A stretch of 31,466 nucleotides of DNA, from IMG/VR virus record IMGVR_UViG_2645727604_000022. One strand, written 5' to 3'. This document shows positions 1 through 24,276 of this stretch, one piece after another. The translations under genes were made by a program, and so were the position numbers. The notes beneath the pieces are model-generated. The model searched no databases. It was given only the letters and a program-made list of their open reading frames with translations, and was not told where the DNA came from. Position 1 is the stretch's first letter. Each line of letters opens with the position of its first letter. Source of the DNA: a virus (taxonomy: Duplodnaviria > Heunggongvirae > Uroviricota > Caudoviricetes).

Positions 1-1335
1 ATGCGTTACAATCAATTTTCACATTACAAACGCTCCGACACTTTAGCCGGGGAGTTTATGAGATACAAGCCCAATCAATACATAATCTGTGATTCTTACG
101 GTAACTACTATTTAAGGATCACGCTGCCTGTGTATATGCAGCCCTTTTTTGAAGGAAAAAGGACGTTTGTCAGAAGTCTACACACAAGTAATCTTCGTGT
201 TGCACGTAGAAAGCGTGATCAGATTGCAGATGAATACCATTGTCTACGGGAGAGTGTCGCCCCTGTAAACAGCACAATAGAGAACACGCTGGAACTGTTA
301 CGCAGTAAGGCTAAATACGCCAAAACAGCTACCAGAATGCAAGATACAGCGTCTTCGTGTCCGTCATTGCTTAAAATTCTTGAAATCTACCTGACAATTA
401 ACAGCACGAAGAAGAAGCCAGCCACTTTAGCTAAGGCAAGAAAAGCGGTAGAGATGTTTCTCTCCTACCGTAAAAAGCCTGATATTGCATTGCAAGATGT
501 AAGCCGCACCACTGTTACAGGCTGGATTGAACACATGCAAAAAACCCTTTCACAACAATCAATTGCAAATTATATCAGCCCAATGGCCCAGCTATGGGAA
601 TTAGCTTCATCACGTTACCACGATGCGCCAGAAAGGGCGCTCTCCCCCTGGCGAGGGCATAGGCTTGATGTGGCACAAAGTAGAGAGAGCTACGAGGCAT
701 TTTCTAACAAAGAGCTATTGCAGGTGTTGCAAGTATTTTCCGGTGATTCAGCAGAAAACAAAGAAATGATGGCTTTGTGTCTTATCGGTTTATATACAGG
801 TATGCGGATCAATGAGATAGCAAGTCTCACAATAGACGATGTGAAAGAGATCGAAGGTGTGCTGTGTTTTGAAATCACACAGGGAAAGACGAAAGCTGCG
901 GCACGTGTTGTGCCTGTACATAGCCTTATCACTCCGTTGGTGTTGTCGCTGCGTGAAAAGCCTCACAATGGCTTTTTGTTCTATCACGCCAGCATTACAG
1001 AGCGTGCTGATGGTAAACGTTCCACGTGGCACACGCAGAGATTTACAAGAGCTAAACGAAAGGCTTTAGGGGAAAAGGGAACAGAAAGGAAGGTGTTTCA
1101 TTCTCTGAGACACGGAGTAGCACAGCTTCTTGATCGAAATCAAATTCCAGAAGACAGGATCGCCCTTCTCCTGGGCCATACACGCGGCAATACAGAAACA
1201 TTCCGCACATATAGCAAGAATGCAGCTTCTCCGGTAGAGCTTAAAAACTATATTGAGCTTCTACGCTACCCTGAAATAGAGAAAGGCTTATCAATCAATA
1301 AAAAATCAAATTTAAGGCGTAAAACAACACCATAG
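1..1335 (+). CDS. int: Tyrosine site-specific recombinase / integrase (444 aa; may extend upstream of the window)
   Basis: Catalytic-type motifs GMRINEIASL (Arg box), HSLRHGVAQLL (HxxR) and LLGHTRGNTETFRTYSK (Tyr) in the C-terminal half; ORF starts exactly at the window edge. Confidence 0.8.
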   Translation: MRYNQFSHYKRSDTLAGEFMRYKPNQYIICDSYGNYYLRITLPVYMQPFFEGKRTFVRSLHTSNLRVARRKRDQIADEYHCLRESVAPVNSTIENTLELLRSKAKYAKTATRMQDTASSCPSLLKILEIYLTINSTKKKPATLAKARKAVEMFLSYRKKPDIALQDVSRTTVTGWIEHMQKTLSQQSIANYISPMAQLWELASSRYHDAPERALSPWRGHRLDVAQSRESYEAFSNKELLQVLQVFSGDSAENKEMMALCLIGLYTGMRINEIASLTIDDVKEIEGVLCFEITQGKTKAAARVVPVHSLITPLVLSLREKPHNGFLFYHASITERADGKRSTWHTQRFTRAKRKALGEKGTERKVFHSLRHGVAQLLDRNQIPEDRIALLLGHTRGNTETFRTYSKNAASPVELKNYIELLRYPEIEKGLSINKKSNLRRKTTP

Positions 1336-1342
1336 ACGCAAT

Positions 1343-1380
1343 AAAGAGGCTTCAACATATATTAGTAGCCTCTTTTATAA
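1343..1380. terminator. Putative bidirectional intrinsic terminator between the convergent integrase and 237-aa genes
   Basis: 9-bp stem AAAGAGGCT / AGCCTCTTT with 15-nt loop, A-run on the left and T-rich tract on the right. Confidence 0.45.
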
Positions 1381-1416
1381 TTACATCGTTACAGAGCGTT
1401 TTAGAGGCGTTTACGG

Positions 1417-2130
1417 CTATTCCTGTTTAAAGGCAGGAGTAATAGTGTCTTCACCTTCACTACTTGATTTTTCAGTGTTAACACGTTTTTTCATATTAGC
1501 CCCGATGTTCTTAGATGGCTGTGTTTTGATAGCTACAGTGTTTACAGTGCCATAAGAAACTAATCTGATTTGCTCAAAGCTAAGATCAAATACCAGGGAT
1601 TCGCTTGCCTCTTCTGTGTATTCGATGCCTGTTAAAACAACGTTCTCAAAAGTTTTATTTTCTGTAACAAGAAGAAAAGGCTGTCTACTGTCCATAATCT
1701 GATTCAGGTAATCTATAGCCAATGATCTTCTGTTCCCTGTCACCCCTGCACTCTTTAACAAGCCAGGATCGCTTTTAATCGGTGTTTCAGTGATCCTCCC
1801 TTTAAGAGAAAACTTATTATTCTTCACTTGAACGTGATCCGATACAGTAGCCCCATTCTCTACGGGGTAGCTTGTAACATCTGCCGAACGTCTTACGTTC
1901 ACATCGTCTACACTGTCAAAAGCCAGTGCCATATAATTTTCATAAACGTCATTACCAGAAGATGCCAGCCCACTGGTAACAATAGCAAAACCATTTTCTC
2001 CTTTTGTTTTATTGGCTTTGCTATTTTCGTTTTTTGTAGAGTTTATATCTTGTTCTGCTTTGTAAACAGCCTGAACGTGTTGTTCTGGAGTATTTGCTGC
2101 ACGTATGGTTAAAATCCCGGCGGTCGCCAT
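1417..2130 (-). CDS. Hypothetical protein (237 aa), last gene of the structural-like operon
   Basis: Long ORF in AT-rich DNA; no recognisable motif; SD is 15 nt from the ATG so the true start is uncertain. Confidence 0.55.
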   Translation of the reverse strand: MATAGILTIRAANTPEQHVQAVYKAEQDINSTKNENSKANKTKGENGFAIVTSGLASSGNDVYENYMALAFDSVDDVNVRRSADVTSYPVENGATVSDHVQVKNNKFSLKGRITETPIKSDPGLLKSAGVTGNRRSLAIDYLNQIMDSRQPFLLVTENKTFENVVLTGIEYTEEASESLVFDLSFEQIRLVSYGTVNTVAIKTQPSKNIGANMKKRVNTEKSSSEGEDTITPAFKQE

Positions 2131-2164
2131 AATAATAATTTTCCTTGCAATGTTATGGCGGGAA

Positions 2165-3991
2165 TTACCCGCCGTTAGATTGTCCTGATAAGCTGGTTAA
2201 TGTTAATGATTTCAAGAAGCTATCCCGACTTGCTCTCGCTGTAAAATCCACATAATCGCTTAATCTTGATGTGTCACTATTAATAGTAAGAGGAACCTCT
2301 GTTACCACTTCAAATGTAGGATTCAGATTGAATACAGGAGATAAATTATAAGCCGGAGTTGTCATTGCAAGATTATTTAAAGCACCCTGTTTGAGATTGG
2401 TTATCGGTGCTTCACTAACTGACATTTTTACATCTGACACAGAAGAATTATCATCGAAAAGCAATCCCTTAATCGTGTTAAAGAGAGAATGACTATTATC
2501 AGGTGTAGTTGTTGCAGTGCCAGCGCCTTTATATTGATCAGGAACGAGATTATCTAAATTCTTCTTCATCCCTTCATTGCTTAATGGCGGTGCATCACCC
2601 ATATTTTTTTGAATAGCATCTGTCTTATCATCATTACGATTAAACCAGTTTACAATCTTCATAATAGCTTCAAAGAGACTTCCTATAGCTTCTCCCAGCT
2701 TCGTAAAATACGGAGTGAGATTAGAAAGGTTTTTCATAAACTCTTCCGTTACTTTTGGATCGAGAGATTTCATAAACCCGTCTACGAATGCTACTTGCCT
2801 TGCATCAGAAAGCTGTGAAAGCTGTCTGTTTAGTTCTCTGAATTTAACGATAGATTCTTGCTGTGTTTCTGTTAGCCATTTTCCAGAGGCTTTTTGCTGA
2901 TTAATACTTTCTTGTACATCTTTAACGGAACGTTGCCAATATTTTGATGTAAGCATCAAATCATCGCCCAGATCTTCTAAACGTTGTCCAATTTGAGAAT
3001 CTGAAAACCCTTTTTTCATCATTCCATTAACAGCCTTAGAAATTAATCCGGCTGGATTATCAGCAAATTTTTTAAGGTCGCTTTTGTTAATAACACCGAT
3101 GTTTAGAAGTTCATTAATAGCGTTATCACCGCCTTTCCATTCAGATTTTCCTTTCTTGTCTTTCACCAATTCAGCTTCACTATAGGATTTTGCGGCACGT
3201 TCACGCACATCTTTCATCTGATCCAGGTATTTCCTAGCCCCTTGATCACCCATCATAGAGTCAACGCCGTTTCTATACGCCCATTCTGTAATATTATACA
3301 TCTGGTTAACGTCTACACCGCCCAGCCTTGCACGTTGAATTAGCTCCCCTTGCGTTTCAGCATTCGCAAAGCTGTTAGCCATAAATTCAGAGGTTTTACT
3401 AACAGCCATCACGCCAGCAGCCGCCGTAGCGCCTCCAAATAACAGAGCGCCCATAGTGGCGGAATTCCCTGCTCCTCCCTTAACGGGGGCTAATTGAGCT
3501 TTTCTGTTGCCATTAATCTTACGTTGTTGCTGTTGTAAGCGTTTCATCTGACTATTCATACGTGCAAGCGAGATAGCCCCTTGCTCATATTGTTTTGCTA
3601 TCTCTCTAGCCTGTGCAATAGCTTTATATTGTTCAGCTACAGAGAGGCGGTGCATTGCACTGATAGAGCTTGACACATCAAGGAGCTTTAATTCTGCTTT
3701 CTCTTTACGTGCTGCTATTTGTTGCTGTTGCCTTGCCTGTGCTCTTGCTGCGGCAGCTTGTGCTCTTTGATTTTGCTTTTCTGTTTTGGCTTTTTGCTGG
3801 GTAATCTTGTCTACTTCACTTTGTGCTTTCTTATAGCCTTTAGTGACGCTATCAAATCTTAATTTAGCTGGCTTGATGTTTTCTGCGAATTCCTTTAAGC
3901 CTGTAATAGAGTCTTTCGCTTTTTTTAAGCTGTCTTTATCTACACTAAATGTAACTGTGTTCTTAATTTTAGAAGTGTTAATTTCTAACAT
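2165..3991 (-). CDS. Hypothetical coiled-coil / glycine-zipper protein (608 aa), tape-measure-like or ejection-protein-like
   Basis: Q/A/R-rich coiled-coil stretch (QRAQAAAARAQARQQQQIAARKEKAELK), hydrophobic Gly-rich segment GALLFGGATAAAGVMAVS; SD AAGGGG 7 nt before ATG. Confidence 0.7.
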   Translation of the reverse strand: MLEINTSKIKNTVTFSVDKDSLKKAKDSITGLKEFAENIKPAKLRFDSVTKGYKKAQSEVDKITQQKAKTEKQNQRAQAAAARAQARQQQQIAARKEKAELKLLDVSSSISAMHRLSVAEQYKAIAQAREIAKQYEQGAISLARMNSQMKRLQQQQRKINGNRKAQLAPVKGGAGNSATMGALLFGGATAAAGVMAVSKTSEFMANSFANAETQGELIQRARLGGVDVNQMYNITEWAYRNGVDSMMGDQGARKYLDQMKDVRERAAKSYSEAELVKDKKGKSEWKGGDNAINELLNIGVINKSDLKKFADNPAGLISKAVNGMMKKGFSDSQIGQRLEDLGDDLMLTSKYWQRSVKDVQESINQQKASGKWLTETQQESIVKFRELNRQLSQLSDARQVAFVDGFMKSLDPKVTEEFMKNLSNLTPYFTKLGEAIGSLFEAIMKIVNWFNRNDDKTDAIQKNMGDAPPLSNEGMKKNLDNLVPDQYKGAGTATTTPDNSHSLFNTIKGLLFDDNSSVSDVKMSVSEAPITNLKQGALNNLAMTTPAYNLSPVFNLNPTFEVVTEVPLTINSDTSRLSDYVDFTARASRDSFLKSLTLTSLSGQSNGG

Positions 3992-4002
3992 TTAAAATCC
4001 CC

Positions 4003-4206
4003 TTAATCATTTTTACCACCTTCTTTACTTAAGAAATGGTGTAGAGCCTGATCAATACTCTCGTTTAATCTGAACATACGGGCTTTTACTCCTTCATATG
4101 GAACATCTAAGAGAGAACAGAGATATTTCAGATTTAACAAGCCTCTAGAATCATTAGCATCTAAATGAACGTGTACACCATTTTTTGATTTCAGAATCAC
4201 TTCCAT
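4003..4206 (-). CDS. Hypothetical small protein (67 aa)
   Basis: ORF with SD GAGAGGTGA 7 nt upstream, sits directly after the terminator that follows the 342-aa gene. Confidence 0.45.
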   Translation of the reverse strand: MEVILKSKNGVHVHLDANDSRGLLNLKYLCSLLDVPYEGVKARMFRLNESIDQALHHFLSKEGGKND

Positions 4207-4227
4207 ATTTTAATCACCTCTCAAAAT

Positions 4228-4274
4228 TTAAAAAAAAAATAAAAAAAAGGCGAAGCGTGAATACACGCCACGCC
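4228..4274 (-). terminator. Intrinsic terminator downstream of the 342-aa gene
   Basis: On the minus strand: hairpin AGGCGTGGCGTG-TATT-CACGCTTCGCCT followed by a long U-run (plus-strand A-run 4228-4247). Confidence 0.5.
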
Positions 4275-4293
4275 TCTATTACACGTTAAAATA

Positions 4294-5322
4294 TTATTTA
4301 ACAGTGATTTGAACGGAGAAGCCTACACCGTGGTTTACAACCATCTGGCTATTCTCTGTAACAACGTTAACAGCATCACCACGAGAAGATTCATAGCTGT
4401 AGCTGTACACCTCAGCAGGAGCGGTATTAATCAGTTCAAAAGTGCTGGAAGCCGCCCCATAGATGGCCTGGTAGACGTTAGAGCCTTTAGCGAATTTAGG
4501 CACGGCTACAGCGTCAGCGGTCATATGTGCAAGGTGTAGCGGATCTACCAGTTTAATAACATCAATGTTAGTTCCTGGAATAGTGAACGCTGTCACCCCC
4601 GGTAGCAGGTCACGACGCTGATACACAACGTTTCCCTCTTCCAGTGGGCTTACATACTGGAATGCGTTTGCCATACCAGCAGAGAATCGAATTGCAGAGA
4701 AGGCTTCCGGCTTACAGAAAACAACAATACGCTCTACAGCAGCCGCCTGGCTTTGTGCTTTTTCGATAATGTCAGTAGCAATCTGATCAAATTCTTTAAA
4801 AATCTTCGTGGTGTCAGTGCTGGAAGCGTTCACAGTGGCTTTCATAGCTGATACGTTAAACAGCTTGCCCCATTCGATAAGAACATCATCAGTTTTAGGC
4901 GTGTAAGTTTTACCGCTAAACAGAGATGCAGCCAACACGCTCTCTTTTGTACGCTGATACGCTACGTGGTGTTTAGCAACATAGTCAGCATAGATATCAG
5001 TGAGTGTTTCCTGAAAATCAGTGCCTGGCTTACGTTTGCCTTGAACATCAGAAGGACGGATCACATCTTCACGAAGAAAATACGGGATTTCAATCAGCCA
5101 TTCTTTACCTTGTTCTCGCTTAGTAACATTGTGTTCAGAAGAGAAACGAGAGGTTTCTTTGTTGAACAGAGATTCGTTGCTTTCGACAAGCTGGGAAACA
5201 GCTACTTTATGAGAACTAACGCCCACCGGATCAGTGAAGTCGAGGGTAGAGAGCAGATAGTTTCTAGTGCTATGCGCAGAGAACAAAGGGGCTAAATCAA
5301 CGTAATCATTACCTAGAATCAT
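4294..5322 (-). CDS. Hypothetical protein (342 aa), probably an abundant structural protein (capsid-like guess only)
   Basis: Long ORF; helical N-terminal half and beta-rich C-terminal half; followed by a strong terminator as is common for highly expressed structural genes; no diagnostic motif. Confidence 0.7.
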   Translation of the reverse strand: MILGNDYVDLAPLFSAHSTRNYLLSTLDFTDPVGVSSHKVAVSQLVESNESLFNKETSRFSSEHNVTKREQGKEWLIEIPYFLREDVIRPSDVQGKRKPGTDFQETLTDIYADYVAKHHVAYQRTKESVLAASLFSGKTYTPKTDDVLIEWGKLFNVSAMKATVNASSTDTTKIFKEFDQIATDIIEKAQSQAAAVERIVVFCKPEAFSAIRFSAGMANAFQYVSPLEEGNVVYQRRDLLPGVTAFTIPGTNIDVIKLVDPLHLAHMTADAVAVPKFAKGSNVYQAIYGAASSTFELINTAPAEVYSYSYESSRGDAVNVVTENSQMVVNHGVGFSVQITVK

Positions 5323-5340
5323 TTATTATTATTCCTTTTA

Positions 5341-5703
5341 TTAAGAAGTGAAAACCGTATTAAAGCCTTCAAGCTGGAAGCCTTTTTTAATTAATGCTGT
5401 TTTTGCTGCTTCACTTACAGCATTCAGGGCATCAGCTTTGATGCATACAAGCCCAGCATTGCTACGTAGCACATCTACAGGCTTGTTGTCTCCAGCCGTT
5501 ACAAATTCACTCATAACAACATAGATATCATCTCCTGATTCATATTTAGCGCCAGTGCTGGTGATCAAGTCTCCGCATTCAACATCAGCAGGAAGAGAAG
5601 CAAAAACCTTGCTTTCTACAGAGGCAAACGGATCAGTACAATAAGCCACCAGATCTGTAAACGTCTTTCGACTTGGAAAAAGAGCGTCTAAATCAATAAT
5701 CAT
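5341..5703 (-). CDS. Hypothetical protein (120 aa), immediately upstream of the 342-aa gene
   Basis: Strong SD TAAGGAG 8 nt before ATG; start overlaps the stop of the upstream 70-aa ORF. Confidence 0.6.
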   Translation of the reverse strand: MIIDLDALFPSRKTFTDLVAYCTDPFASVESKVFASLPADVECGDLITSTGAKYESGDDIYVVMSEFVTAGDNKPVDVLRSNAGLVCIKADALNAVSEAAKTALIKKGFQLEGFNTVFTS

Positions 5704-5912
5704 TTAGTAATCTCCTTAGCTTTTAATTTGATTAATTCATTAAGGGAAGGTGTAGACGGAGAAGAAGGAGAAAAATATTTTTCAACACATCTTTCTACTT
5801 CCTCTACAGAACACCCAGCGTATTTAGCTACCATTTCGGTAATTTGTGGATTAATTTTCAGCATTTCATCTTTATACTTGATGATTTGCTCTTTATCATT
5901 TAAGAACAACAT
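5700..5912 (-). CDS. Hypothetical small protein (70 aa) with SPSSPSTPS linker
   Basis: ORF translationally coupled to the next gene; weak SD. Confidence 0.45.
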   Translation of the reverse strand: MLFLNDKEQIIKYKDEMLKINPQITEMVAKYAGCSVEEVERCVEKYFSPSSPSTPSLNELIKLKAKEITK

Positions 5913-6035
5913 TTATATAAACCTTGTTACCTTGTTTAAAGTAAGAAATACAACTTTTAAGTTGCATAACGGGCAAAATAAAAGGCAGCATTTAAAGCCG
6001 CCTTTTATTAACTCATACCTATGTAATTACCCTAT

Positions 6036-6065
6036 GTTATGCATACTCCAAGATGTATGCATAAC
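6036..6065. promoter_or_regulatory. Perfect 11-bp inverted repeat GTTATGCATAC-N8-GTATGCATAAC (candidate operator upstream of the structural-like operon)
   Basis: Read directly from the sequence; lies in the 343-bp gap between the 6256-6621 gene and the 5912 start. Confidence 0.35.
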
Positions 6066-6255
6066 AAAGGAAAAAAGAGGTAATAATGACACTTAAGGAG
6101 GAGGAGAAGCGGGGAGCGGAGATTTTACTCCCCTTTAATGACAGGAAGAATTTTTAATATCGAACCAACAAAGGAAAAATAATCACCCTATATAATTATA
6201 TTAACATACAATAGATGAAATGTCAAGATATTTTACAACTTTTTTGTTGCTTTTT

Positions 6256-6621
6256 TTATTCTTCTGTGATAGCAGCGCCTAAGCGTTGAGCTAGTTCAAC
6301 AAGTCCGTCTCCTACATAGCGAACGTCCGAGTAAATACCTTCTATCCAGTTTGATAGCTCCCATATCTGATCCGCTGTCAGATATGCGTTCTCACTCTTA
6401 CAGAGCATCTCTACACGCTTACAGAGCATCTCAAAGGCATTCACAGCTAAATCCCAGTGTTTAAACGCCTCATTTAGTGCCGCTGGCGTGTTTTCTTTGT
6501 ATGCTTCAAGTTCAGCACGGTTTAAAGGCAGGAGGTAATCATCCTCATAATAATTAATTAGTGAGTAAATTGTGTCATACGTGTTTTTGTTCATATTAAA
6601 AGTCTCCATAGTGATCAACAT
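6256..6621 (-). CDS. Hypothetical protein (121 aa by ORF; likely start at the third Met, 6594)
   Basis: GGAG 9 nt before the ATG at 6594; contains an in-frame 21-bp tandem duplication (EMLCK repeat). Confidence 0.55.
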   Translation of the reverse strand: MLITMETFNMNKNTYDTIYSLINYYEDDYLLPLNRAELEAYKENTPAALNEAFKHWDLAVNAFEMLCKRVEMLCKSENAYLTADQIWELSNWIEGIYSDVRYVGDGLVELAQRLGAAITEE

Positions 6622-7006
6622 TATCCAGAATCTGGAATTCAGGAACTAAATTATTTAGGCCATTGGTGGCGAGATAACCAACGTAGTGATTATAATCTTC
6701 AAATCCTAAAATCTGGTATTTGCGTAAATCAGAGCTATCAACAATATACTCTTTTCTTTTTCTAGGTTTCCAGAATACGCCAGGTGTTGAAGATAAGATT
6801 TCTTGTAATGCGATATATTCATCTCCACAAGGCACAGAGGGAGAATGTTCTATGATCTCTGTTTTCCATTCGCCAGGGGCGCTATTATGCTTGGTGAGCG
6901 TAACTAGCTCTTTAAAGTCTTTACGTCTTAGAATAGATTTAGGTTTACTTAGAAGAGAAGCTGAATCACCGATCTTCTTAACAACATTGTTTTTTCTTTT
7001 TGCCAT
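6596..7006 (-). CDS. Hypothetical protein (136 aa) with basic N-terminus
   Basis: ORF in the minus-strand replication/regulation operon; N-terminus MAKRKNNVVKK. Confidence 0.55.
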   Translation of the reverse strand: MAKRKNNVVKKIGDSASLLSKPKSILRRKDFKELVTLTKHNSAPGEWKTEIIEHSPSVPCGDEYIALQEILSSTPGVFWKPRKRKEYIVDSSDLRKYQILGFEDYNHYVGYLATNGLNNLVPEFQILDNVDHYGDF

Positions 7007-7135
7007 TTATTTTTCCTTTTCTTTTAAAGGAAAACACCCCGAAATATGTTTCTAACGTGAGAAAGAACAATAACCAATACATAGCTACTATCATAATAAT
7101 GTTTTCCTTTTATATTTTAATTACATAGAGAGATT

Positions 7136-7414
7136 TTAGAGAGTGGAATAGATGAATTCTATTTCTTTATCTAGTCTTTTGAGATTGAATGTAGAGAAAG
7201 ATAATTCTTTAATTTCTATAACACCGAAGTTTGATAGCTGTTTAAGCCAGAATTTTAAACCATCTTCAGAGCACCCTGCTCGATGTAACACATCGCTATA
7301 TTTTAGCGGTGTTGGCTTTCCTTTATAGAGGTAAGCAAGTGTTTCGTAGATGCGTTTTCCTGTGTCATTACACTGAATTCTGTCTACTTGATTTTTTACT
7401 AAATATTGAATCAT
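7136..7414 (-). CDS. Hypothetical protein (92 aa)
   Basis: ORF directly downstream of the HTH replication-like gene. Confidence 0.5.
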   Translation of the reverse strand: MIQYLVKNQVDRIQCNDTGKRIYETLAYLYKGKPTPLKYSDVLHRAGCSEDGLKFWLKQLSNFGVIEIKELSFSTFNLKRLDKEIEFIYSTL

Positions 7415-7425
7415 AACCCTCCTTA

Positions 7426-8115
7426 TTAAAATGGAATATCAAAGTCATCATACACATTTGGGTAATTCTTAGAAAAATATGCCTCAATACCATTTGGTAG
7501 CTTTAACCTGTGCTTATAGGCTAACGATGTTGCAAATTCTATAAATGATGCTCCTCCTGTTCTGGTATTCTTCTGCTTGATAATAAGAGATGCAAAATTC
7601 TCTAACACATCCTCCTCATTATCATTAGCTACCTTTTCACTTGATGAAACAGGTGTTTCTTCCGTCTCCCACGGCAAAGGCGCATCCCAATCATCAAGAA
7701 CATCAAAAGAAGGCTGTTTATGGCCTTTAGGTTGTTCCTGTGCTTCTTCTGCCTCAGAAAGATCAGAGAGTGATGATTCTCCTGGGGGAGTAATATGTGC
7801 ATCTGTGAGAGGGAGAGCATTGTAAATCAAAGATGAAATATACGGATCAGGATGTGGGGATGTTTCTAATAATCCCATCTCTTTAAGATCGTTTATCTTA
7901 CGTTTAATTGTTGACGCTGAAGACTTAAAAATCTTAGCTAATGTTTCGTGACTTTCATAACAATTAAGGTTGTTTTCCTGATAACTAAGGAATCGAAAAT
8001 AAAGCACAATATGTAATAGATCTAAATCTTTTCCTTGAGGGAATTTATCAGAATAAATCTTTGATACATTATCAAACGTGTCATAGTGTTTTGTAAAAGT
8101 TAGTTGATTAATCAT
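7426..8115 (-). CDS. Putative replication initiator / replisome-organizer-like HTH protein with SSB-like C-terminal tip (229 aa)
   Basis: HTH-like segment HETLAKIFKSSASTIKRKINDLKEMGLLE, acidic disordered middle, extreme C-terminus YDDFDIPF (E. coli SSB ends DFDDDIPF). Confidence 0.6.
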   Translation of the reverse strand: MINQLTFTKHYDTFDNVSKIYSDKFPQGKDLDLLHIVLYFRFLSYQENNLNCYESHETLAKIFKSSASTIKRKINDLKEMGLLETSPHPDPYISSLIYNALPLTDAHITPPGESSLSDLSEAEEAQEQPKGHKQPSFDVLDDWDAPLPWETEETPVSSSEKVANDNEEDVLENFASLIIKQKNTRTGGASFIEFATSLAYKHRLKLPNGIEAYFSKNYPNVYDDFDIPF

Positions 8116-8166
8116 TAAAAATCTCCTTATAAATCACGCTTAATGCGCTACTAAAGTGAATGAGGA

Positions 8167-8334
8167 TCACTTACCCTTTTTTTGTTTGATGTTCTCTGCT
8201 GCTTCAGTAATGATTTCTAACATCAAATCACTGACCATAATTTGCCTTTTCTTGGCTTCAGCAAATAAAACCTTGAAGATTTCAGGGTCAACGTGTAGGT
8301 AAGTGCGCGGAATTGGTTTCTTAGTTTCGCTCAT
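8167..8334 (-). CDS. Small ribbon-helix-helix-like (CopG/Arc-type) putative regulator, 55 aa; not in the ORF track
   Basis: Hand translation MSETKKPIPRTYLHVDPEIFKVLFAEAKKRQIMVSDLMLEIITEAAENIKQKKGK; SD AAGGAG 7 nt upstream of the ATG at 8334. Confidence 0.45.
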   Translation of the reverse strand: MSETKKPIPRTYLHVDPEIFKVLFAEAKKRQIMVSDLMLEIITEAAENIKQKKGK

Positions 8335-8353
8335 AGTTTTCTCCTTCTATTCT

Positions 8354-8542
8354 TTACTCTGTTTCAGATTCTTTTTCATTTTTTCTTAGTTCATCAATAA
8401 TCTTGAGTGCTTCATTGAAGCAAGCTGCTCGCTCTGGATAACCTCGACTCCTTGCCATATTACGATTCATTACTACTTGATGGCGTGTAAGCTCACCTTT
8501 TTTAAATGCCTCTACGACGTGTTTCGGTGTAAACCATTTCAT
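8354..8542 (-). CDS. Hypothetical small protein (62 aa), first gene of the minus-strand operon
   Basis: ORF with a candidate sigma70 promoter about 100 bp upstream. Confidence 0.45.
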   Translation of the reverse strand: MKWFTPKHVVEAFKKGELTRHQVVMNRNMARSRGYPERAACFNEALKIIDELRKNEKESETE

Positions 8543-8652
8543 AAAAAACTCCTTATTCAGTTAAAAGAAAAAACACCTTGCAAGCCTGACGGCTTCAAAG
8601 TGCATTGATTTTGATTATTTAGAGAAGAATGTTTTCTGTCCCTCTAATACCT

Positions 8653-8681
8653 ATTATTACATATAAAGAAACATTTGTCAA
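8653..8681 (-). promoter_or_regulatory. Candidate sigma70 promoter for the 8542-to-6256 operon
   Basis: On the minus strand TTGACA, 17-bp spacer, AATAAT. Confidence 0.3.
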
Positions 8682-9240
8682 TACCTTTTCACAAAAAATC
8701 TGATCTTTTTCATGCACTTACATTTTTTCTTAGCAATTCGTGCTCTCCTGTGTGGTGCTATTCTTCATTATCCGCTAAAACGCTCTAAAACGCGTTCTAA
8801 CGAGGTTTTGATAAAAGCAATACATTCCCTTATGTAATGGCTGTTTAGCTCGCCAGAGGCTTATTTAAGGGGCTTATTTTGTATTTGTTAGGTATATGAA
8901 AAGGTAATGGTAGATATAAGATAGAGAGTCACTTTATAAAACGCCCTGTAAAGCCCTGTAGTGAGTTTATTATATGTAGGCAATGCGTTTCCATTCCCTA
9001 CCCTGCTTAATGCTATTAGAGAAGCATTTAGACCCCTTATTTTTAATTAATTAAAGTATCCTCTATACATTCCTGTTATGAAACACCTCTGAATCCTTCA
9101 TAAAACACATTATGACGCAAAGAACACTTTTCTAAGGTGATTCCCTTCCTGAATGCTGTTTCTTGCGTCAAAGAGCTACACAGAGCTTATAAAGCTATTA
9201 TTAATAATAAAGTAGATAAGTAAGATAACTAAGATAGATA

Positions 9241-9660
9241 AGATTAATAAGATCAGAATTCTCTTTCGGTGTCGCCTCTGGCTTTTCCACCGAAAACAAT
9301 TACACAACTACAGAGAATAACGAGAGTTATTAAATGTAGAAAGTGGAATTGTATTGAGGCTTAGTGAAATTACACGAGGAAAGCAGAGTGTAATTGAGCT
9401 TTAGCCGCTCTCTCTTCGAGTAATTACACAACTACAGAATGTAGAAGTGGAATTAAGAGTTAGAGTTAACACATAAGCAATCAGTATGATTGGTTAGGTG
9501 ATTACTCTTCTGCGCACAGCGCAATAGATTTCTTCGTGGGCGTTATCGCCAACGAAGTTACACGAAGAAAGTAACGCTTTGCTTTCGGTGTGAGCGGAAC
9601 GGGCCAGCCACGAAGCCCAAAGGTAGCGGAGTAAGGCTGCTTGCCAGAGAGTGAAGCTAA
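9241..9660. other. Structured, relatively GC-richer non-coding block with nested hairpins and TGTGTAAT/AATTACACA motifs (possible regulatory RNA or protein-binding array)
   Basis: Hairpins TTTCGGTG...CACCGAAA, AATTACAC-N12-GTGTAATT, CTTCGTGGGCG-TTAT-CGCCAACGAAG; direct repeats AATTACACAACTACAGA at 9297 and 9422; no ORF of 60 aa or more. Confidence 0.3.
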
Positions 9661-9769
9661 CGCCGGAAGGCAAAAGATCATATATATATATAGATATAAA
9701 GAATATTATTATTATGATCTAATTAATAATCTAATATAGTTTTATTAATAGTCTTATTGTAGTTCACAG

Positions 9770-9845
9770 TGACCTACCCCCTAGCTCACTATGACCTACC
9801 CCCTAGCTCATAGTGAACTACCCCCTAGCTCATAGTGAACTACCG
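9770..9845. repeat. Iteron array: about 3.5 tandem copies of a 22-bp unit TGA(C/A)CTACCCCCTAGCTCA, next to an AT-rich tract (9660-9760); candidate replication origin
   Basis: Units start at 9770, 9792, 9814 and 9836 (22-bp period); the preceding tract is almost pure A/T including ATATATATATATAGATATAAAG. Confidence 0.6.
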
Positions 9846-10318
9846 TTACTACCAATCATCACATAGCACTCTGTGTAATGCCTTTCTATGTGTGTGCCAT
9901 AATCCCCTATATTCCCTGTGTAAATCATAGAATATCCCTAACTTATTCCTGTGTAATTCCATACTAAAAATTCAATGAAAAGTAGCTTAAAAGTGCAATT
10001 CTTACTTTCTTCACTTTTACATCACTTTCGCAAAGCCTTGTGTAGTGCGGCTTACAGAGCACCATCAGAAATTGTTGGCTAAAAATTGTTCTGCTTGTTT
10101 CTGAATGAGTTTTCTCGTTTGTGCAAATTTTAAAATTTATTTTGTTTTTACAGCCTTATTTCGTGTAATGCGTGGCATAGCAAGCCCTTTTCTTGTGTTG
10201 TCAAGACATTTGGCAACGTTCAAACATCTGTTTAGAAATGCCAAATTGTTGATCTAACAAATAAACCTGTATAAACAGAACACTATTTAATCTATTCCCC
10301 TGTGTATCCATTAGGCAT

Positions 10319-10426
10319 ACCAAATGAATACATCTAAATCGTGTAATATTCCGTACCTATAAGGCTTGAAACAGACCAAATGAATACGATATACTCATTT
10401 GCATTGGAGTAGTGCCAAATCGATAC
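10319..10426. promoter_or_regulatory. res-like recombination / autoregulatory site upstream of the serine recombinase gene
   Basis: Three direct copies of ACCAAATGAATAC-like 13-mer (10319, 10375, 10414); the middle one forms a 25-bp palindrome CAAATGAATACGATATACTCATTTG. Confidence 0.45.
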
Positions 10427-10440
10427 ATTAAGGGGATTTT

Positions 10441-10980
10441 ATGAGCAATATCGGTTATAAGCGTGTGAGCACTGTAGATCAGAACACTGATCGCCAGCTT
10501 GCAGGAGTAACGCTTGATAAAGTCTTTGAAGATAAGCTGTCAGGTAAAGACACTAACCGTCCAGGATTGCAGGCGTGTTTATCCTATCTGAGAGAAGGCG
10601 ACACCTTACACGTGCACTCTCTCGACCGTTTAGGGCGTAACACCTTAGACATTCTTGCCTTAGTGGAACAACTTAATAATCGAGGTGTAATTGTTCGATT
10701 TCATAAAGAAGGGATCATTGCAGACATTACAAGCGCGATGGGAAAAATGATGCTTACGATGTTGTCGGCAGTTGCAACGTGTGAACGTGAACTGATGTTA
10801 GAGCGTAAACGAGAAGCGCAAGCCGTCAATCCTACAAAGCGTGGTAATGGAAAAGCAGTAGATAGAGAAGGTATAAAGAAAGCCCTTTCTGATGGCCTGT
10901 CAGTGCGTAAAACCGCCGAGAGCTTTAATGTTGCTCCTTCAACGGTACAGCGAATTAAGAAGGAAGAAGAGGAGGCGTAA
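10441..10980 (+). CDS. Small serine recombinase (resolvase/invertase family), 179 aa
   Basis: N-terminus MSNIGYKRVSTVDQNTDRQ with catalytic-Ser context, FEDKLSGKDTNRPGL and GDTLHVHSLDRLGRN match the Hin/resolvase family pattern; SD AAGGGGA upstream. Confidence 0.9.
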   Translation: MSNIGYKRVSTVDQNTDRQLAGVTLDKVFEDKLSGKDTNRPGLQACLSYLREGDTLHVHSLDRLGRNTLDILALVEQLNNRGVIVRFHKEGIIADITSAMGKMMLTMLSAVATCERELMLERKREAQAVNPTKRGNGKAVDREGIKKALSDGLSVRKTAESFNVAPSTVQRIKKEEEEA

Positions 10981-10996
10981 TGCCTCCTTGATATTT
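10970..10996 (+). terminator. Putative intrinsic terminator overlapping the recombinase stop codon
   Basis: Hairpin AGGAGGC-GTAAT-GCCTCCT followed by a T-rich tract. Confidence 0.45.
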
Positions 10997-11421
10997 GGGG
11001 ATTCTGGATTTTCCAGATCGGGGGGCGCTGAAAATCGCGTTAAGCACCTCTCGCAATCTAGCCATAAGGGAGGGGATTCATATGTATTTAGATGTATTTA
11101 TAGCTATTTATGGCTATTTATGGCTATTTATTTTTTATTTATCTTTATTTAAAAATAACCTTATAAATCAATAAGATACAGAACTATCTGTTTATATTTT
11201 AATCAATTAAATCAAGTTTAATACCCTTAAATACCCTAAAAATAGCCTTAAATACCCCAATAATTAATTTTAAGGCTTTCCGTGTTCTCTTCTGCATTAT
11301 GAAAATGCAAAATAAGGCACAAAACAAGCTCACAGACGCATTAAACACACATCACCTATACACCCCTATACCAAGCAATGAAAACAGCGTTAGAATGCGT
11401 CCTGTTGCGTTCTGGAGATTT

Positions 11422-11580
11422 TCAGAAATCCTCTCTAAGCCATTTCAACTCACTAAGGAGTTTTCTTTCTTCGTTCTCTCTCTGTTTACGCTCTAACCAG
11501 GCTTTTCCTTCTGGCGTAGACAGGAACTTACGAGCGTGAATCTTGCGGTTATTACGTTTTATAGCTGCAATGTTTTTCAT
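11422..11580 (-). CDS. Possible small basic protein (52 aa); not in the ORF track
   Basis: Hand translation MKNIAAIKRNNRKIHARKFLSTPEGKAWLERKQRENEERKLLSELKWLREDF; AGAGG 6 nt before the ATG. Confidence 0.25.
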   Translation of the reverse strand: MKNIAAIKRNNRKIHARKFLSTPEGKAWLERKQRENEERKLLSELKWLREDF

Positions 11581-12183
11581 CGTGTGCCTCTGTATTCATA
11601 TGAAAATTAACAAGTTACATACTACACAGGGAGACTACGCATAAAACACAATACAAGTAAAGATACATTTTCAAGACAATAGGAGCCATAAAGCGCCTTT
11701 GATGGTTATACCAAAAAATAAGCGCCGTAGGCGTATCCACTAAAAAGGGCTTTTTCACAAAAGCTATGAAGTCTTAGCAGTTCTTCTCTTATCAGGCACC
11801 CGTTGTACTCCGGTGGACGAAACCGTGCTAGAGCTTGATTCTTTCCCGATCAAGTTAGGTTTTGAAGAGGTGGGCTTTAATCCACTATTGCACTTAAAAC
11901 TCTTCCCATCATTTAGCCTGTTTATCCTCTGCAACGTCTCACGACGTGTGGCATCATTGGACACCGCGCCAGGTGTGGAACATCTTGCTAAGAGTTTTGG
12001 TAGAAGGTTTAGAGACGGTGGCACGTCTTCCAGCTTCAAAGGAACTTGTTACGAGGTTGAGCCTGGGAACTACTCGCCCATACGTGTTACACTACCAAAG
12101 CCCATAACAACGTATAGGCGTTTGTAAGTGATAACAGAAGATACAATTTCTTAGAGAAGTTAAGCTAAGTTATTGATTTTCTT

Positions 12184-12202
12184 AATGGTGCCGATAATAG
12201 GA
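12184..12202. repeat. attL: 19-bp copy of the tRNA-Thr 3' end
   Basis: Identical to 30021-30039. Confidence 0.6.
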
Positions 12203-12263
12203 ACAATACACATAGGCGATAAGCTTTGTTTTTGTTGCCTTTTTTATTGTTCATTTTTTATAG

Positions 12264-12288
12264 ATACCCCCAAAAGTACCCCCATATC
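12264..12288. repeat. Tandem TACCCCCA half-site motif ATACCCCCAAAAGTACCCCCATATC, left-end copy (candidate integrase arm-type site)
   Basis: Near-identical copy (21 of 22 positions) at 29889-29913 in the same orientation. Confidence 0.4.
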
Positions 12289-12313
12289 TTTTTCCGCCCC
12301 TGAAATTTGGTTG

Positions 12314-12725
12314 TTATTCATACAGCATATCAGGCGGTAACGCTCTCCCTTTAACCCACTTATTGTATGATAGTGCTATCCCACAATAAGGAATCAGCCA
12401 GCCATGAGAATGACCAGCCGCAAAAAAGAGATACTTAGCTACTTTGAACCGGATAACCTCGAATGGGTGACTGGTGAGATTGGTGCGCCGCCCATAGTGG
12501 CGTGATTGCCGCGTTACCCATGCTTTCATCCTCACCCCATACGCGATACTCGCTACCTGGATCACCTTTACGCCCTTTCTCGAACATATACAGGTGTTCG
12601 TCATTCCAGCCAAAAGCTAACTGGATCACGGCATGAAGTTTACTAAAGGGGATTTGCTCTGGAACCAGCACACGCCGCCATATAGGTGGTTTGCTGTCTC
12701 GGATGGTTATCTTTAGCTGGTACAT
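12314..12725 (-). pseudogene. Frameshifted gene resembling the pRiA4b ORF-3-like family
   Basis: N-terminal frame MYQLKITIRDSKPPIWRRVLVP...AFGWNDEHLYMF continues in a second overlapping frame carrying YLFFAAGHSHGWLI; family assignment is from memory. Confidence 0.45.
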
Positions 12726-12845
12726 GCAAATCCTGAATAAATGCGAATCGGAAGGATAACGATACTGACGTACTCACAATTCTGTAAAGGTGAATAAAGG
12801 AAATTTGCTTAATACGCATAAGTTACATGTGGAATAATCCCATAT

Positions 12846-13031
12846 CTACCTGCGCGGCGCTGGCTTCTTCCACTGGTAGGCAGGTGCTCGCATCATTTCG
12901 CGGAACCTGTCGCGCCGGGCTATATCGGCATTAACTGATCGTTCTATCTCCCGTTGATCTGCCTGTGTAAGCTGATGGCCTCCGTGCTCAAGTTTGGCGA
13001 TGGTCAATAAGGCTATTTCGCGTGGTGTCAT
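12846..13031 (-). CDS. Hypothetical small protein (61 aa)
   Basis: ORF with SD AGAGGG 8 nt upstream. Confidence 0.35.
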   Translation of the reverse strand: MTPREIALLTIAKLEHGGHQLTQADQREIERSVNADIARRDRFREMMRAPAYQWKKPAPRR

Positions 13032-13328
13032 ACGTCATACCCTCTGGAAGAATGAAACACGCCCGGATTAAATTTCATTTTTCGCGGGTATAAAAAAACG
13101 ATGGGGCGGGCAGTCCCGGATAGTCAGGGCTGTAGAGATTTGACTACCCCCTCCCCACTGGATTCAGGTTACTGCTATTCCGTTAAGCGCTGCTTACGGG
13201 GATAGCTGCGTTGTGATTTTGACCATTCAGGTCGCCGCTATTTCCTCACCGATTGGGTGCTACGCGCGCGCGTACTTGTCCCGAAATACCAGAAACCGCC
13301 AGCCAGAGGATGATTTCCCTCTGGTGGT

Positions 13329-13610
13329 CTACCTTTGCCTCTTGCCGCCATTTAACCGGAAGGCGTTACCGTTCGGTTGCGCTATCCCCATGCGGTGTTG
13401 CGTTTCGGTAACAGCTTTATGCAGGTCGCCAAATTCCTCAACCTTCACGGGCGGGCGCTTCACGTTCTCCAGACACGTTTCACGGCGGCGCTTTATCCAT
13501 TCCCGATCATCGTCCTCGGTGCATAACAGCATGACTTCCATCCATCGTGCGGCAGCTCTCCGGTATAGCCCTTTTGACTCCAGCTCTTCAGCTTTCCTGT
13601 CCCTTATCAT
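13329..13610 (-). CDS. PerC-family-like small transcriptional regulator (93 aa)
   Basis: N-terminus MIRDRKAEELESKGLYRRAAARW resembles the PerC/Pch family as recalled; SD GAGAGG 7 nt upstream. Confidence 0.5.
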   Translation of the reverse strand: MIRDRKAEELESKGLYRRAAARWMEVMLLCTEDDDREWIKRRRETCLENVKRPPVKVEEFGDLHKAVTETQHRMGIAQPNGNAFRLNGGKRQR

Positions 13611-13640
13611 TTCTGCCTCTCAGATTATATAGATAAGCAA

Positions 13641-13770
13641 AAAGGTGTTGGTTCAGTTGGTTCAGTTGGTTCAATTTGTAAAGATTGTTGTTTTTATTGT
13701 GTTTTTTCTGAAATATTGAACCAACATCAACTCATTTTGAACCAACACAGCCCAGCTCTGAACCAACAAC
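13641..13770. repeat. Iteron cluster IR-L: three tight GTTGGTTCA repeats then three spaced TGAACCAAC repeats
   Basis: Reverse complement matches cluster 20679-20799, including a 43-bp perfect terminal match. Confidence 0.65.
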
Positions 13771-13869
13771 ACAGCGATAGATTTGTGATTGGTCCGTTAT
13801 TTTCTGGCTGATATTTGAGCGTATAACAGTGTTATACAGTGGTATACTGTATGGATATTACTCACTGAT

Positions 13870-14325
13870 ATGGTCTTTGCAATGAGCAAATCTAATCTGG
13901 TCGCGTTCCGCATCCCATCTGAATTGCAGGATGAGTTTAATCGGTCTGTTCTCGCTTCTGGAGGAGATAAAACCTCCTGGCTTGTTGATGCGATTCGCAT
14001 GAAGCTGGGGCAGCCGGAAAAGTCTATTGATTCACGAATGCTTGGGCTGGTGGAGCGCATGGAAAAAGCCGCTGCGTCGCTTATTGCCGGAAAGCCGAAC
14101 ATCCCACCAAAACCATATAACGAAACGGCAGTTATAAAGATCATTGCCGATACCATCCAACAGGGATTTGATAATGGGCGTGTGATAGCTGAACGGATCA
14201 ATGAAGCAGGCTATCAAACAAAAGCTGGTAAAGCGTGGGATAAAGATATTTACAGCGCGTGGAAGCGTCAGGGAAGCAATGCTGAAAAGCTAAAAGCAGT
14301 GATTGATTGTAAGGTCAGCGTATAA
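13870..14325 (+). CDS. Mnt/Arc-like ribbon-helix-helix domain protein with C-terminal extension (151 aa)
   Basis: RHH-like N-terminus SNLVAFRIPSELQDEFNRSVLASGGDKTSWLVDAIRMKLG; no clear SD. Confidence 0.55.
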   Translation: MVFAMSKSNLVAFRIPSELQDEFNRSVLASGGDKTSWLVDAIRMKLGQPEKSIDSRMLGLVERMEKAAASLIAGKPNIPPKPYNETAVIKIIADTIQQGFDNGRVIAERINEAGYQTKAGKAWDKDIYSAWKRQGSNAEKLKAVIDCKVSV

Positions 14326-14404
14326 ACATGAGTGCCCATTGGAAAGTTGCTTGGGCCAATACCTTTATACACCAGCAGGTAGTGACGATAGGTGAGGATC
14401 AGAT

Positions 14405-14626
14405 ATGAAAGGCAGAACGCCACACATTGAACATCAAGCCAACCACTTCCCTGATGTTCGCAATGAGATGATTGCCATTCGCGGTGATATGCACGGATTG
14501 GAGCGTCGAATTATTGATAAGATTGATGAAAATAGAGATAAGGCCAGTGAAAATCAAAAGTGGATCATCGGCCTGTTGATTTTATCAATTCTTATCCCGC
14601 TACTTATCGCATTGGTCACAAAATGA
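14405..14626 (+). CDS. Small protein with C-terminal transmembrane anchor (73 aa)
   Basis: SD GAGGA 9 nt upstream; C-terminus KWIIGLLILSILIPLLIALVTK. Confidence 0.5.
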   Translation: MKGRTPHIEHQANHFPDVRNEMIAIRGDMHGLERRIIDKIDENRDKASENQKWIIGLLILSILIPLLIALVTK

Positions 14627-15146
14627 ATATCCAATGTGTATGCTGTCGATGCTACGCGCGCGTACTTGTCGCAAAATATCAGGCAAAGGCCAGATTCAGA
14701 AAGTCGTGATAATCACCAGCACAACATGAGATGTCATGTAACGCGATTGATCACACCAGATACATGTGATGGTGTACCCGCATAAAACATCGTCATAGCG
14801 CGTCCTGTGCGCACATACGCCGATAATCAACACATCACCACCACTCTGTCTCGTGTAGAGAACAGTTTCATGGTATCCCCCGCCATCGTGTGCGTACTGG
14901 TCGGACGTGGTTGCAAAATTTTTGCAACTGATACCCCTCGCGCGCGTACTGGTCACGAAATTGGTGTTTTGCTGTGGCAGTGATATCAGAAAAATCTTCC
15001 TGTTTCACATAAAGCGGATATGCGCGTACTGTAACGACCCCATCAACGGGATCGGATTTGAAATCCTGACCCAAGCTATGTACCAAATGCCATGTCTTGG
15101 ATATATGATGATTGCCATTCTAAACAAAGCTAAAGGGAGGGTTGGT

Positions 15147-15503
15147 GTGAGGGGGCAGGCAGTTATAATTATTTTGTTGGGTTTAATTGTCGCAAAGTTA
15201 TACCCGACTTTATCGATGGTGTTTTTTGCCATTATTGGCGCAGCCATCTTTACTTATATCATTAAACATACCGCCTTGTGGTTCTATAAAATTGATATAG
15301 TTCAGAAGTTTGTACGTCCTGTGTCGATGTTATTACTAGCATTAATACCAATTGGTGTTGCTTATGTAATTGATGTTTTTTACCCTTCGGACACTGAAAG
15401 GTGGTTGATAGTTTTGTATTGTTATATTGGTGTAGCTCTCTTTTGTGGATTTCATTGGTGTTTCGAAAAGATCAATGACTCTATTTCAAAGAATAAAGAT
15501 TGA
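15147..15503 (+). CDS. AT-rich small integral membrane protein with four predicted TM helices; candidate immunity / superinfection-exclusion protein (ORF track frame opens at 14907; start here assigned to GTG 15147)
   Basis: SD GGAGGG 6 nt before GTG; four hydrophobic helices; about 37% GC on sampled lines versus about 63% in the adjacent 705-aa gene. Confidence 0.6.
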   Translation: MRGQAVIIILLGLIVAKLYPTLSMVFFAIIGAAIFTYIIKHTALWFYKIDIVQKFVRPVSMLLLALIPIGVAYVIDVFYPSDTERWLIVLYCYIGVALFCGFHWCFEKINDSISKNKD

Positions 15504-15517
15504 GGCCATCCGTGGCC
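15504..15517. terminator. Short hairpin between the convergent membrane-protein and 705-aa genes
   Basis: GGCCA-TCCG-TGGCC hairpin; weak flanking U-runs. Confidence 0.3.
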
Positions 15518-15522
15518 ATTCA

Positions 15523-20055: not shown

Positions 20056-20071
20056 GCGATGCCATCCATTT

Positions 20072-20233: not shown

Positions 20234-20248
20234 AACGCCCCCTTAGAA

Positions 20249-20264
20249 CTGTATAAAACAACAG
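20249..20264. promoter_or_regulatory. LexA-type SOS box CTGTATAAAACAACAG, immediately downstream of a perfect TATAAT (20267-20272, minus strand)
   Basis: Matches CTGT-N8-ACAG with an AT-rich spacer; sits 16-31 bp upstream of the RHH start codon; only such box found in the window. Confidence 0.45.
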
Positions 20265-20799: not shown

Positions 20800-20817
20800 C
20801 TACGCACATGAAGAAGC

Positions 20818-24266: not shown

Positions 24267-24276
24267 GGCTCCATCC

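Follow-up and report, generated by a model that had tools for sequence, protein, structure and literature searches.

How does a replication initiator that has neither helicase nor primase activity bring a replisome to its origin? The question is open for RepA_N-like Rep proteins and has been stated as such for the RepA of the phage satellite PLE (PMC7145576). It is raised again by a 12.3-kb element that opens IMG/VR record IMGVR_UViG_2645727604_000022, a stretch of 31,466 nt that we call the window (coordinates below are window positions unless a locus is named). The element encodes Rep, a protein that ends in YDDFDIPF and closely resembles, at that end, the C-terminal tip (SSB-Ct) of SSB, the bacterial protein that binds single-stranded DNA. 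We consider it probable that Rep molecules bound to iterons display these SSB-type tips, and that the tips dock replisome proteins of the host or of a helper phage at the origin of the element. The gene and its tip are placed as follows.

7426..8115, minus strand: rep, encoding a 229-aa iteron-type replication initiator (open reading frame [ORF] and translation, PHROG matches; labeled "transcriptional regulator" in RefSeq)

7429..7452, minus strand: the tip YDDFDIPF-COOH, an SSB-Ct-like motif, aa 222-229 (translation and conservation)

The rep ORF starts with ATG, and its translation ends in ...NYPNVYDDFDIPF / ...SKNYPNVYDDFDIPF, followed by the stop. Residue F229 stands directly before the stop codon, so that a Phe with a free carboxylate occupies the extreme C terminus. 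The final four residues (DIPF) reproduce the distal segment of SSB-Ct without a change; over the terminal eight, YDDFDIPF matches DFDDDIPF of Escherichia coli SSB at five positions, and the proximal segment YDDF, with two Asp and an aromatic residue, has the same composition as the proximal DFDD of SSB-Ct. In SSB, the octapeptide consists of DFDD followed by DIPF; function needs the terminal IPF, the Asp side chains and Phe172 raise affinity, and [IL]-P-F-COOH are the residues resolved in crystal structures of SSB-Ct with its partners (PMC10143822). Rep, with Pro at -2 and Ile at -3, has the required IPF. Amino acid frequencies give a chance of ~5e-6 per protein for a C-terminal DIPF and ~3e-4 for [IL]PF. 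The DNA fetched for this comparison contained 382 unique ORFs of 100 aa or longer; 23 of these end in [IL]PF, and all 23 belong to the Rep family, while none of the ~358 unrelated ORFs has such an end. The observed tip is real and strongly nonrandom.

We assessed conservation of the tip in a pool of 215 unique full-length homologues, drawn from protein clusters and from loci in genomes, IMG/VR and metagenomes. The family is small, with just 40 cluster representatives when 1.84 billion proteins are grouped at 50% identity, and is found in Enterobacterales only, with loci in Escherichia, Enterobacter, Serratia, Buttiauxella, Citrobacter and Erwinia. Terminal F is present in 206/215 homologues, PF in 199/215 and [ILV]PF in 195/215, spread over 45 distinct terminal octamers; the few proteins that lack the terminal F appear truncated or frameshifted. 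Cluster representatives 25-47% identical to the query end in DDFEIPF, DDFDIPF, EEFELPF, FFDPIPF, EFDPIPF, YDSIPF, FEDLPF, SAVPF and TPDPF, and the pattern holds at genome, IMG/VR and metagenome loci, many of them with only the N-terminal domain detectably homologous. The terminal Phe is the sole invariant column in the alignment of the C-terminal modules (C-modules), the tip is kept across at least seven C-module types that can barely be aligned with one another, and an aromatic residue occurs in the proximal segment of 20 of 24 nonredundant tails. Differences among the terminal codons are synonymous or conservative (ATT/ATA/CTA/CTT, CCA/CCC and TTT/TTC), and at least five different junction sequences lie downstream of the rep stop, which together argue for selection on the peptide and not on a DNA motif. 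Collectively, these patterns indicate that the SSB-type tip is under strong purifying selection and that it is the most conserved C-terminal feature of Rep. The likeness to the E. coli SSB tail, from which the original prediction had started, is thus well founded in residue identity and chance expectation, and the tail, whose conservation among homologues had been left as a check, proves to be kept throughout the family.

Two other identities were considered for the protein and its tail. Membership of Rep in the SSB family was rejected: the AlphaFold2 (AF2) model of the N-terminal domain is a winged helix with no oligonucleotide-binding (OB) fold, and searches of Pfam, NCBIfam and PDB gave no SSB match for Rep. 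Beta-clamp-binding motifs follow a Qxx[LM]x[FL] pentapeptide or hexapeptide consensus; YDDFDIPF, which on inspection has no Gln and no Leu, was rejected as a motif of this kind (QL[SD]LF type).

What kind of protein carries the tip? Rep divides into three parts upstream of it.

7783..8115, minus strand: N-terminal winged-helix domain (N-domain), putative iteron-recognition module, aa 1-111 (AF2, Foldseek, co-variation with iterons)

7621..7782, minus strand: acidic, Pro-containing disordered linker, aa 112-165 (predicted local distance difference test [pLDDT], composition)

7453..7620, minus strand: small four-helix C-terminal module, aa 166-221, ~55 aa (AF2)

The N-domain is modeled as a winged helix over aa 7-110 with pLDDT >90 and closes with the family-wide motif ALPLTDAHxxPP, in which D105, H107 and P111 are invariant. 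HTH_36 (PF13730) falls on aa 38-83 at 24.3 bits, against a gathering threshold of 25; some homologues 97-99% identical to Rep have a precomputed PF13730 assignment, and a phage protein with Rep-like domains, inny_184 (see below), scores 44.6 bits. In Foldseek, the top PDB matches of the N-domain are the RepA_N initiators 4pql, 4pt7, 4pta and 5kbj together with the DnaD N-terminal domain (NTD) 2v79, all of them weak (E 0.01-0.1), and Pfam RepA_N (PF06970) has no match to Rep at E <=1. RefSeq labels Rep a transcriptional regulator; its PHROG matches are instead to replication proteins only, namely phrog_270 ("replication initiation protein," 2.6e-9), phrog_428 (2.5e-6), phrog_186 (1.2e-5) and phrog_391 (1.4e-4), which are initiator, DnaD-like loader and O-like initiator families and all cover the N-domain, with or without the linker. 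The linker (aa 112-165) has 15 Asp and Glu against 3 Lys and Arg, a pI of 4.05 and, over aa 117-164, pLDDT <50; it differs in length and sequence among homologues, and N-domains and C-modules recombine there. The C-module is confidently modeled as four helices to aa 225 (aa 166-225; pLDDT ~90 in the full model and 80.8 when modeled alone) and is without a known fold relative, having no PDB match (best Foldseek E >5) and no Pfam or NCBIfam match.

These data indicate that Rep is a replication initiator and not a plain transcriptional regulator. They agree with the helix-turn-helix that had been read from the sequence and, together with the co-variation of N-domain and iterons described below, with the assignment to mobile-element replication. 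The original prediction had also set the tip on an acidic disordered linker; the linker is as acidic and disordered as proposed, but the tip follows the folded four-helix module and not the linker.

If Rep is an initiator, where is its origin? Two adjoining features upstream of rep answer to the description.

9760..9847, unstranded: four tandem 22-bp iterons (TAGYTCAYWRTGAMCTACCCCC), putative Rep binding sites (repeat analysis, locus comparison)

9670..9759, unstranded: AT-rich tract of 90 bp, 86% AT, putative DNA-unwinding element (DUE), directly abutting the iterons and placed in the same way in related loci

The iterons and AT tract lie ~1.6 kb upstream of rep, inside a 1.9-kb noncoding stretch, and as read from the sequence they form the classical iteron-plus-DUE layout. 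No DnaA box was found in this origin region. Related loci have the same layout with different repeats. To type N-domains and C-modules separately, we split Rep at the conserved ALPLTDAHxxPP motif; the two parts recombine independently, giving the combinations N0C0, N0C1, N1C0, N1C1, N2C1 and N2C2. Across 22 loci, each with 2-6 cognate copies, iteron type tracks N-type only, whatever the C-type: all N0-type loci have the iteron TAGGTCACTGTGAGCTAGGGGG, N1 goes with ACCTAGGAAATGAGTTCCTACCT, N2 with TGTAACG-N4-GTTACA palindromes and N3/N4 with CAGGCACTATACCGGAGGGGG, and N5 alleles have a repeat type of their own. As comparative evidence, this speaks strongly for reading of the iterons by the N-domain and for Rep as the initiator of the element. 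The tip is present in every one of the N/C combinations, and its retention whatever the N-domain or C-module argues for a constant external reader.

Some loci have more than one kind of iteron. In locus L012 (1950-2280), N1-type and N0-type arrays lie side by side, and L018 and L010 are further loci with two arrays or single relic copies of noncognate iterons; such mixed and relic arrays suggest that origin modules have been exchanged by recombination in this region. The noncoding stretch around the origin (8543-10440, at 1.9 kb unusually long) lies between o62 and the resolvase, a position conserved across loci. No Rfam family matches it and no ORF in it is convincing; besides the origin it holds further short repeats, for example GCGTTTTAGA twice and TTATCTWACTTA three to four times. 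Another motif is clustered on both sides of the origin.

9299..10347, mostly minus strand left of the origin and plus strand right of it: GTGTAAT motif cluster flanking the origin, 8 matches in ~1 kb

The window has 15 copies of GTGTAAT where 3.6 are expected, a count that none of 100 shuffles reached, and the cluster may be a second set of protein-binding sites, for a regulator, a recombinase or packaging.

Which phage might help this element? The element's distal tail (Dit) protein is 58-61% identical to proteins of Stephanstirmvirinae (Justusliebigvirus, Phapecoctavirus), with all best matches in that subfamily, and its tape measure protein (TMP)-like and capsid proteins also match phage inny. 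The traits of a satellite are present: an integrase with a tRNA-Thr attachment (att) site, a Rep and origin of its own, and virion genes limited to a major capsid protein and TMP-like and Dit-like proteins, which are homologous to those of phages. Taken together, these data suggest, as the most likely reading, a satellite that depends on lytic myoviruses of the Stephanstirmvirinae. The element looks like the representative of an apparently undescribed phage-satellite family, and we found no description of it in the literature. These phages have SSB-like proteins of their own.

L034:34112-35059: inny_125, SSB-like protein, PMDFDDDIPF present

L035:151-1038: SSB-like protein, PMDFDDDIPF present

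L036:151-1083: SSB-like protein, PMDFDDDIPF present

The Stephanstirmvirinae SSB-like protein (inny_125, named SSB in BME3 and in Mt1B1_P17) carries PMDFDDDIPF exactly as the host does. This stretch stands at the very C terminus of the protein in phage tuntematon; in inny and Mt1B1_P17 another 15 residues (APIGLQYGRNFLHCF) come after it, and these would bury the free carboxylate that is normally essential. Since the SSB-like proteins of these phages bear the host-identical tail, the Rep tip may be read by proteins of the phage instead of the host.

The same phages provide a second link to Rep, together with a small gene of the element.

L030:3914-5017: inny_184, 367 aa, two tandem Rep-N-like domains and an endonuclease domain, in phage inny (MN850601, a lytic Justusliebigvirus)

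L030:3694-3876: inny_185, adjoining inny_184

8167..8334, minus strand: o55, 55 aa, just upstream of rep and 100% identical to inny_185

Of the two Rep-N-like domains of inny_184, the first is of N2 type and the second is more like N3. The endonuclease part has a match to phrog_681 (3.9e-18), one to Pfam MUG113 that lies at threshold and a weak one to T5orf172; the protein lacks a PF tip. Near-full-length copies occur in only ~4 phage records, for example in Mt1B1_P17 at 70% identity. The architecture, an initiator DNA-binding domain fused to a nuclease, is like that of Odn of phage ICP1, an origin-directed nuclease that cuts PLE origins by means of a PLE RepA-like domain (PMC8263062). The presence of an Odn-like chimera in phage inny suggests that the Rep/ori module is a functional replication module worth attacking and, by analogy with ICP1, that it matters in the conflict between phage and satellite.

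How, then, would the tips act? We propose that the winged-helix N-domain of Rep binds the 22-bp iterons beside the AT-rich unwinding element and that the acidic disordered linker, ~50 aa long, tethers a helical C-module ending in -[DE]x[IL]PF-COOH. Several iteron-bound Rep molecules would then present several tips on flexible tethers, as a duplex-anchored imitation of SSB-coated DNA, and by docking into SSB-Ct-binding pockets these tips would gather the pocket-bearing proteins at the origin. The recruited proteins would supply the helicase loading, priming and polymerase functions that the element does not encode. The candidate partners in the host are PriA, PriC, DnaG and the clamp-loader subunit chi, all of them proteins with SSB-Ct pockets; the primase-helicase and polymerase of the phage, in inny the products of inny_130 and inny_128, are candidate partners on the helper side. 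It is the combination of an origin that has no DnaA box with an element that has no replisome enzymes (Pfam and PHROG scans of its proteins found no helicase, primase, loader or polymerase) that leads us to propose recruitment by the tips, and we regard this mechanism as well motivated by the sequence comparisons. A fuller version is offered more tentatively: the origin would pass for SSB-coated single-stranded DNA (ssDNA) and nucleate DnaA-independent loading of a primosome or replisome through host PriA, PriC, DnaG and chi or through helper proteins that read SSB tails, and Rep would be the first case in nature of the SSB hub motif being moved onto a protein other than an SSB, in undescribed and widespread E. 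coli satellites that are countered by an Odn-like nuclease. We found no precedent in the literature for an SSB-Ct-type tip on an initiator.

Two observations call for caution over docking of the tip in the manner of SSB. Acidity before the tip is looser than the conservation of its end, with at least two acidic residues at -4 to -9 in 12 of the 24 nonredundant tails, and only the ~4 final residues after the last helix of the C-module are nonhelical. Other roles for the tip were also considered, and one of them involves the gene that follows rep.

7136..7414, minus strand: o92, 92 aa, 11 nt downstream of rep (ORF list; its allele varies in step with the C-module type of Rep)

It is conceivable, if doubtful, that the -xPF-COOH end binds a partner unrelated to SSB-Ct pockets, such as o92 or another protein of the element or helper, or that it folds onto the DNA-binding surface of Rep as an auto-inhibitory DNA mimic, its likeness to SSB-Ct being convergent or superficial. 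Only [IL]PF is universally kept and the acidic part is not, as such a role would allow, and the acidic tails of SSB and T7 gp2.5 bind their own DNA-binding domains. The allele of o92, a protein without a family match in Pfam, PHROG and NCBIfam scans, also changes with C-module type (>90% identity with C0/C2 modules and ~24% with C1); this co-change may reflect mere linkage or a functional partnership, and simple adjacency suffices to explain it. However, the tip outlasts exchange of the N-domain, the C-module and o92 alike, which again points to a constant external reader. The alternation of I and L is that of natural SSB tails, and the most conserved residues, [IL]-P-F-COOH, are those that SSB function requires (PMC10143822).

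A second alternative is that the tip competes with host or helper SSB for its partners and so damps phage or host DNA replication and repair, with an anti-phage effect. We judge this unlikely. The sequence logic of the tip is the same as that of SSB-Ct, the SSB-like proteins of the candidate helpers bear exactly this tail, so that a competitor would hit phage replication, and satellite replication functions lower helper replication in the PLE/ICP1 system (PMC7145576). Yet the tip always sits on an origin-binding initiator and is kept through every N/C swap, and a pure competitor would need no iteron-binding domain and no tether. SSB is, moreover, very abundant and tetrameric, and stoichiometric competition with it by a regulatory initiator seems inefficient. 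Competition and recruitment, both of which the original prediction had put forward, are compatible, and both could operate. Finally, it is highly improbable that Rep is an ordinary transcriptional regulator that resembles SSB by chance or through DNA-level conservation of the junction, given the rarity of the ending, the last three residues shared by the 45 terminal octamers, the synonymous codon variation and differing downstream junctions, the PHROG matches to replication proteins throughout, and iterons and an AT tract that co-vary with the N-domain. Recruitment of replisome proteins by iteron-bound Rep is the reading that we prefer.

The remainder of the element has a gene order that is conserved across loci: integrase, Dit-like, TMP-like and capsid genes, several small ORFs, rep, o55, o62, the noncoding origin region and the serine recombinase. 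The features that have not been placed so far are these.

1..1335, plus strand: tyrosine integrase (Pfam Phage_integrase 1.4e-17; RefSeq annotation in L001)

1417-2130, minus strand: Dit-like protein (Pfam Dit_like 3.8e-29)

2165-3991, minus strand: TMP-like protein, 608 aa (PHROG TMP 1.1e-53)

4294-5322, minus strand: HK97-type major capsid protein (Pfam Phage_cap_E 4.9e-15)

8354..8542, minus strand: o62, 62 aa, which opens the operon-like block of rep and keeps its synteny at nearly all loci

10441..10980, plus strand: serine recombinase of resolvase type (Pfam Resolvase 1.1e-33; synteny in many loci)

12184..12203, unstranded: repeat of the tRNA-Thr 3' end (att), right boundary of the element

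From att to att the element measures ~12.3 kb, corresponding to 1-12203 of the window and to 13879-26218 in locus L001. The 4-kb rep region was matched in 1,078 of 5,426 complete E. coli genomes (~20%) and was covered to at least 80% in 265 of them. No circular or virion-derived contigs of the element were found.

A copy of the rep region is also present on plasmid NZ_CP126938, a conjugative IncF plasmid of avian pathogenic E. coli (L031, 34359-44658). It comprises an N2C1 Rep ending in YDSIPF together with o62, o55 and the recombinase, the latter parted from the rep block by an IS3-family insertion; iterons were not found at their usual place in this copy. Within the window, the element is followed in tandem by a second, unrelated island (12204-30040), which ends at a tRNA-Thr gene (30023-30098) beside proA. 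Genes of this island encode a P4-type integrase (28643-29857), proteins of AntA-like type and of the Ash family, and a primase-helicase of 919 aa with Zn-ribbon, Toprim and DUF927 domains (20818-23577). At 17625-20055 it also encodes counterparts of gp7 and gp20, the ejection proteins of P22, together with a DUF2824 protein.

For the question of how an initiator attracts a replisome, the conserved eight-residue tip is a concrete handle that a single-residue change could probe (loss of the terminal Phe, or P228 to Ser, the counterpart of ssb113). If the proposed mechanism is correct, a mobile element need not encode an SSB to hijack the SSB interaction hub, and SSB-Ct would join the beta-clamp motif as a portable tag for replisome recruitment. 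Other mobile-element proteins would then be worth scanning for tags of the SSB-Ct type, and the finding would bear on the design of SSB-Ct-mimetic antibacterials. The setting adds to this interest, as the satellite family is apparently undescribed, is matched in about a fifth of complete E. coli genomes and shows signs of an arms race with lytic phages of the therapeutic type.

How does Rep compare with known systems? It is like the RepA_N initiators (pSK41/pTZ2162 RepA and PLE RepA) in pairing a winged helix that binds iterons, or in Rep is predicted to, with a lineage-specific C-terminal domain (CTD) that is presumed to recruit the replication machinery, and in having neither helicase nor primase activity; the winged helix of the RepA_N proteins is related to the DnaD NTD, which is also among the weak structural matches of the Rep N-domain. 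How RepA_N-type satellite initiators such as PLE RepA recruit this machinery has been described as unknown (PMC7145576). The replicons of PLE have a modular build in which RepA alleles pair with their cognate origins (PMC7145576), and the PLE helper phage has evolved a nuclease with a RepA DNA-binding domain (PMC8263062); both features are mirrored here, by the N/C swaps and the match of N-type with iteron on the one hand and by inny_184 on the other. Unlike the RepA_N proteins, Rep has no Pfam RepA_N match, its structural likeness to them is weak, and its C-module ends in a recognizable motif of SSB-Ct type. The element also differs from PLE-type systems in its host clade, here Enterobacterales, in its integrase type and in its helper group.

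With SSB, Rep shares the identical terminal D-I-P-F-COOH, preceded by Asp and an aromatic residue, and an acidic, Pro-containing disordered linker, and its tip would likewise be multivalent if several copies sit on DNA. In contrast to SSB, Rep has no OB fold and no predicted ssDNA binding; its anchor is a winged helix predicted to bind double-stranded DNA sequence specifically, and a folded helical module stands between its linker and its tip. In T7, the gp4 helicase-primase has an acidic, Phe-ended C-terminal tail like that of the gp2.5 SSB, and both tails can dock on the same polymerase surface. As in Rep, a replication protein that is not an SSB thus carries an SSB-like, acidic, Phe-terminated tail. 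The T7 replisome is self-contained, however, whereas Rep is the initiator of an element that has no replisome, and its motif is of the bacterial IPF type.

The nearest documented precedent is found among plasmid initiators with a beta-clamp motif, above all TrfA of RK2, whose assembly of the replisome at oriV depends on a beta-clamp-binding motif (PMC4980987). Like Rep, TrfA is an iteron-binding initiator with a short motif copied from a replisome hub. The hub differs, being the beta clamp for the clamp-binding motif (CBM) of TrfA and SSB-Ct for Rep, and so does the position of the motif, which is internal in TrfA and at the extreme C terminus, with a free carboxylate, in Rep. Judged by these analogies, Rep would belong with the known class of initiators that carry a replisome hub motif, and we found no earlier member of that class with a hub motif of SSB-Ct type.

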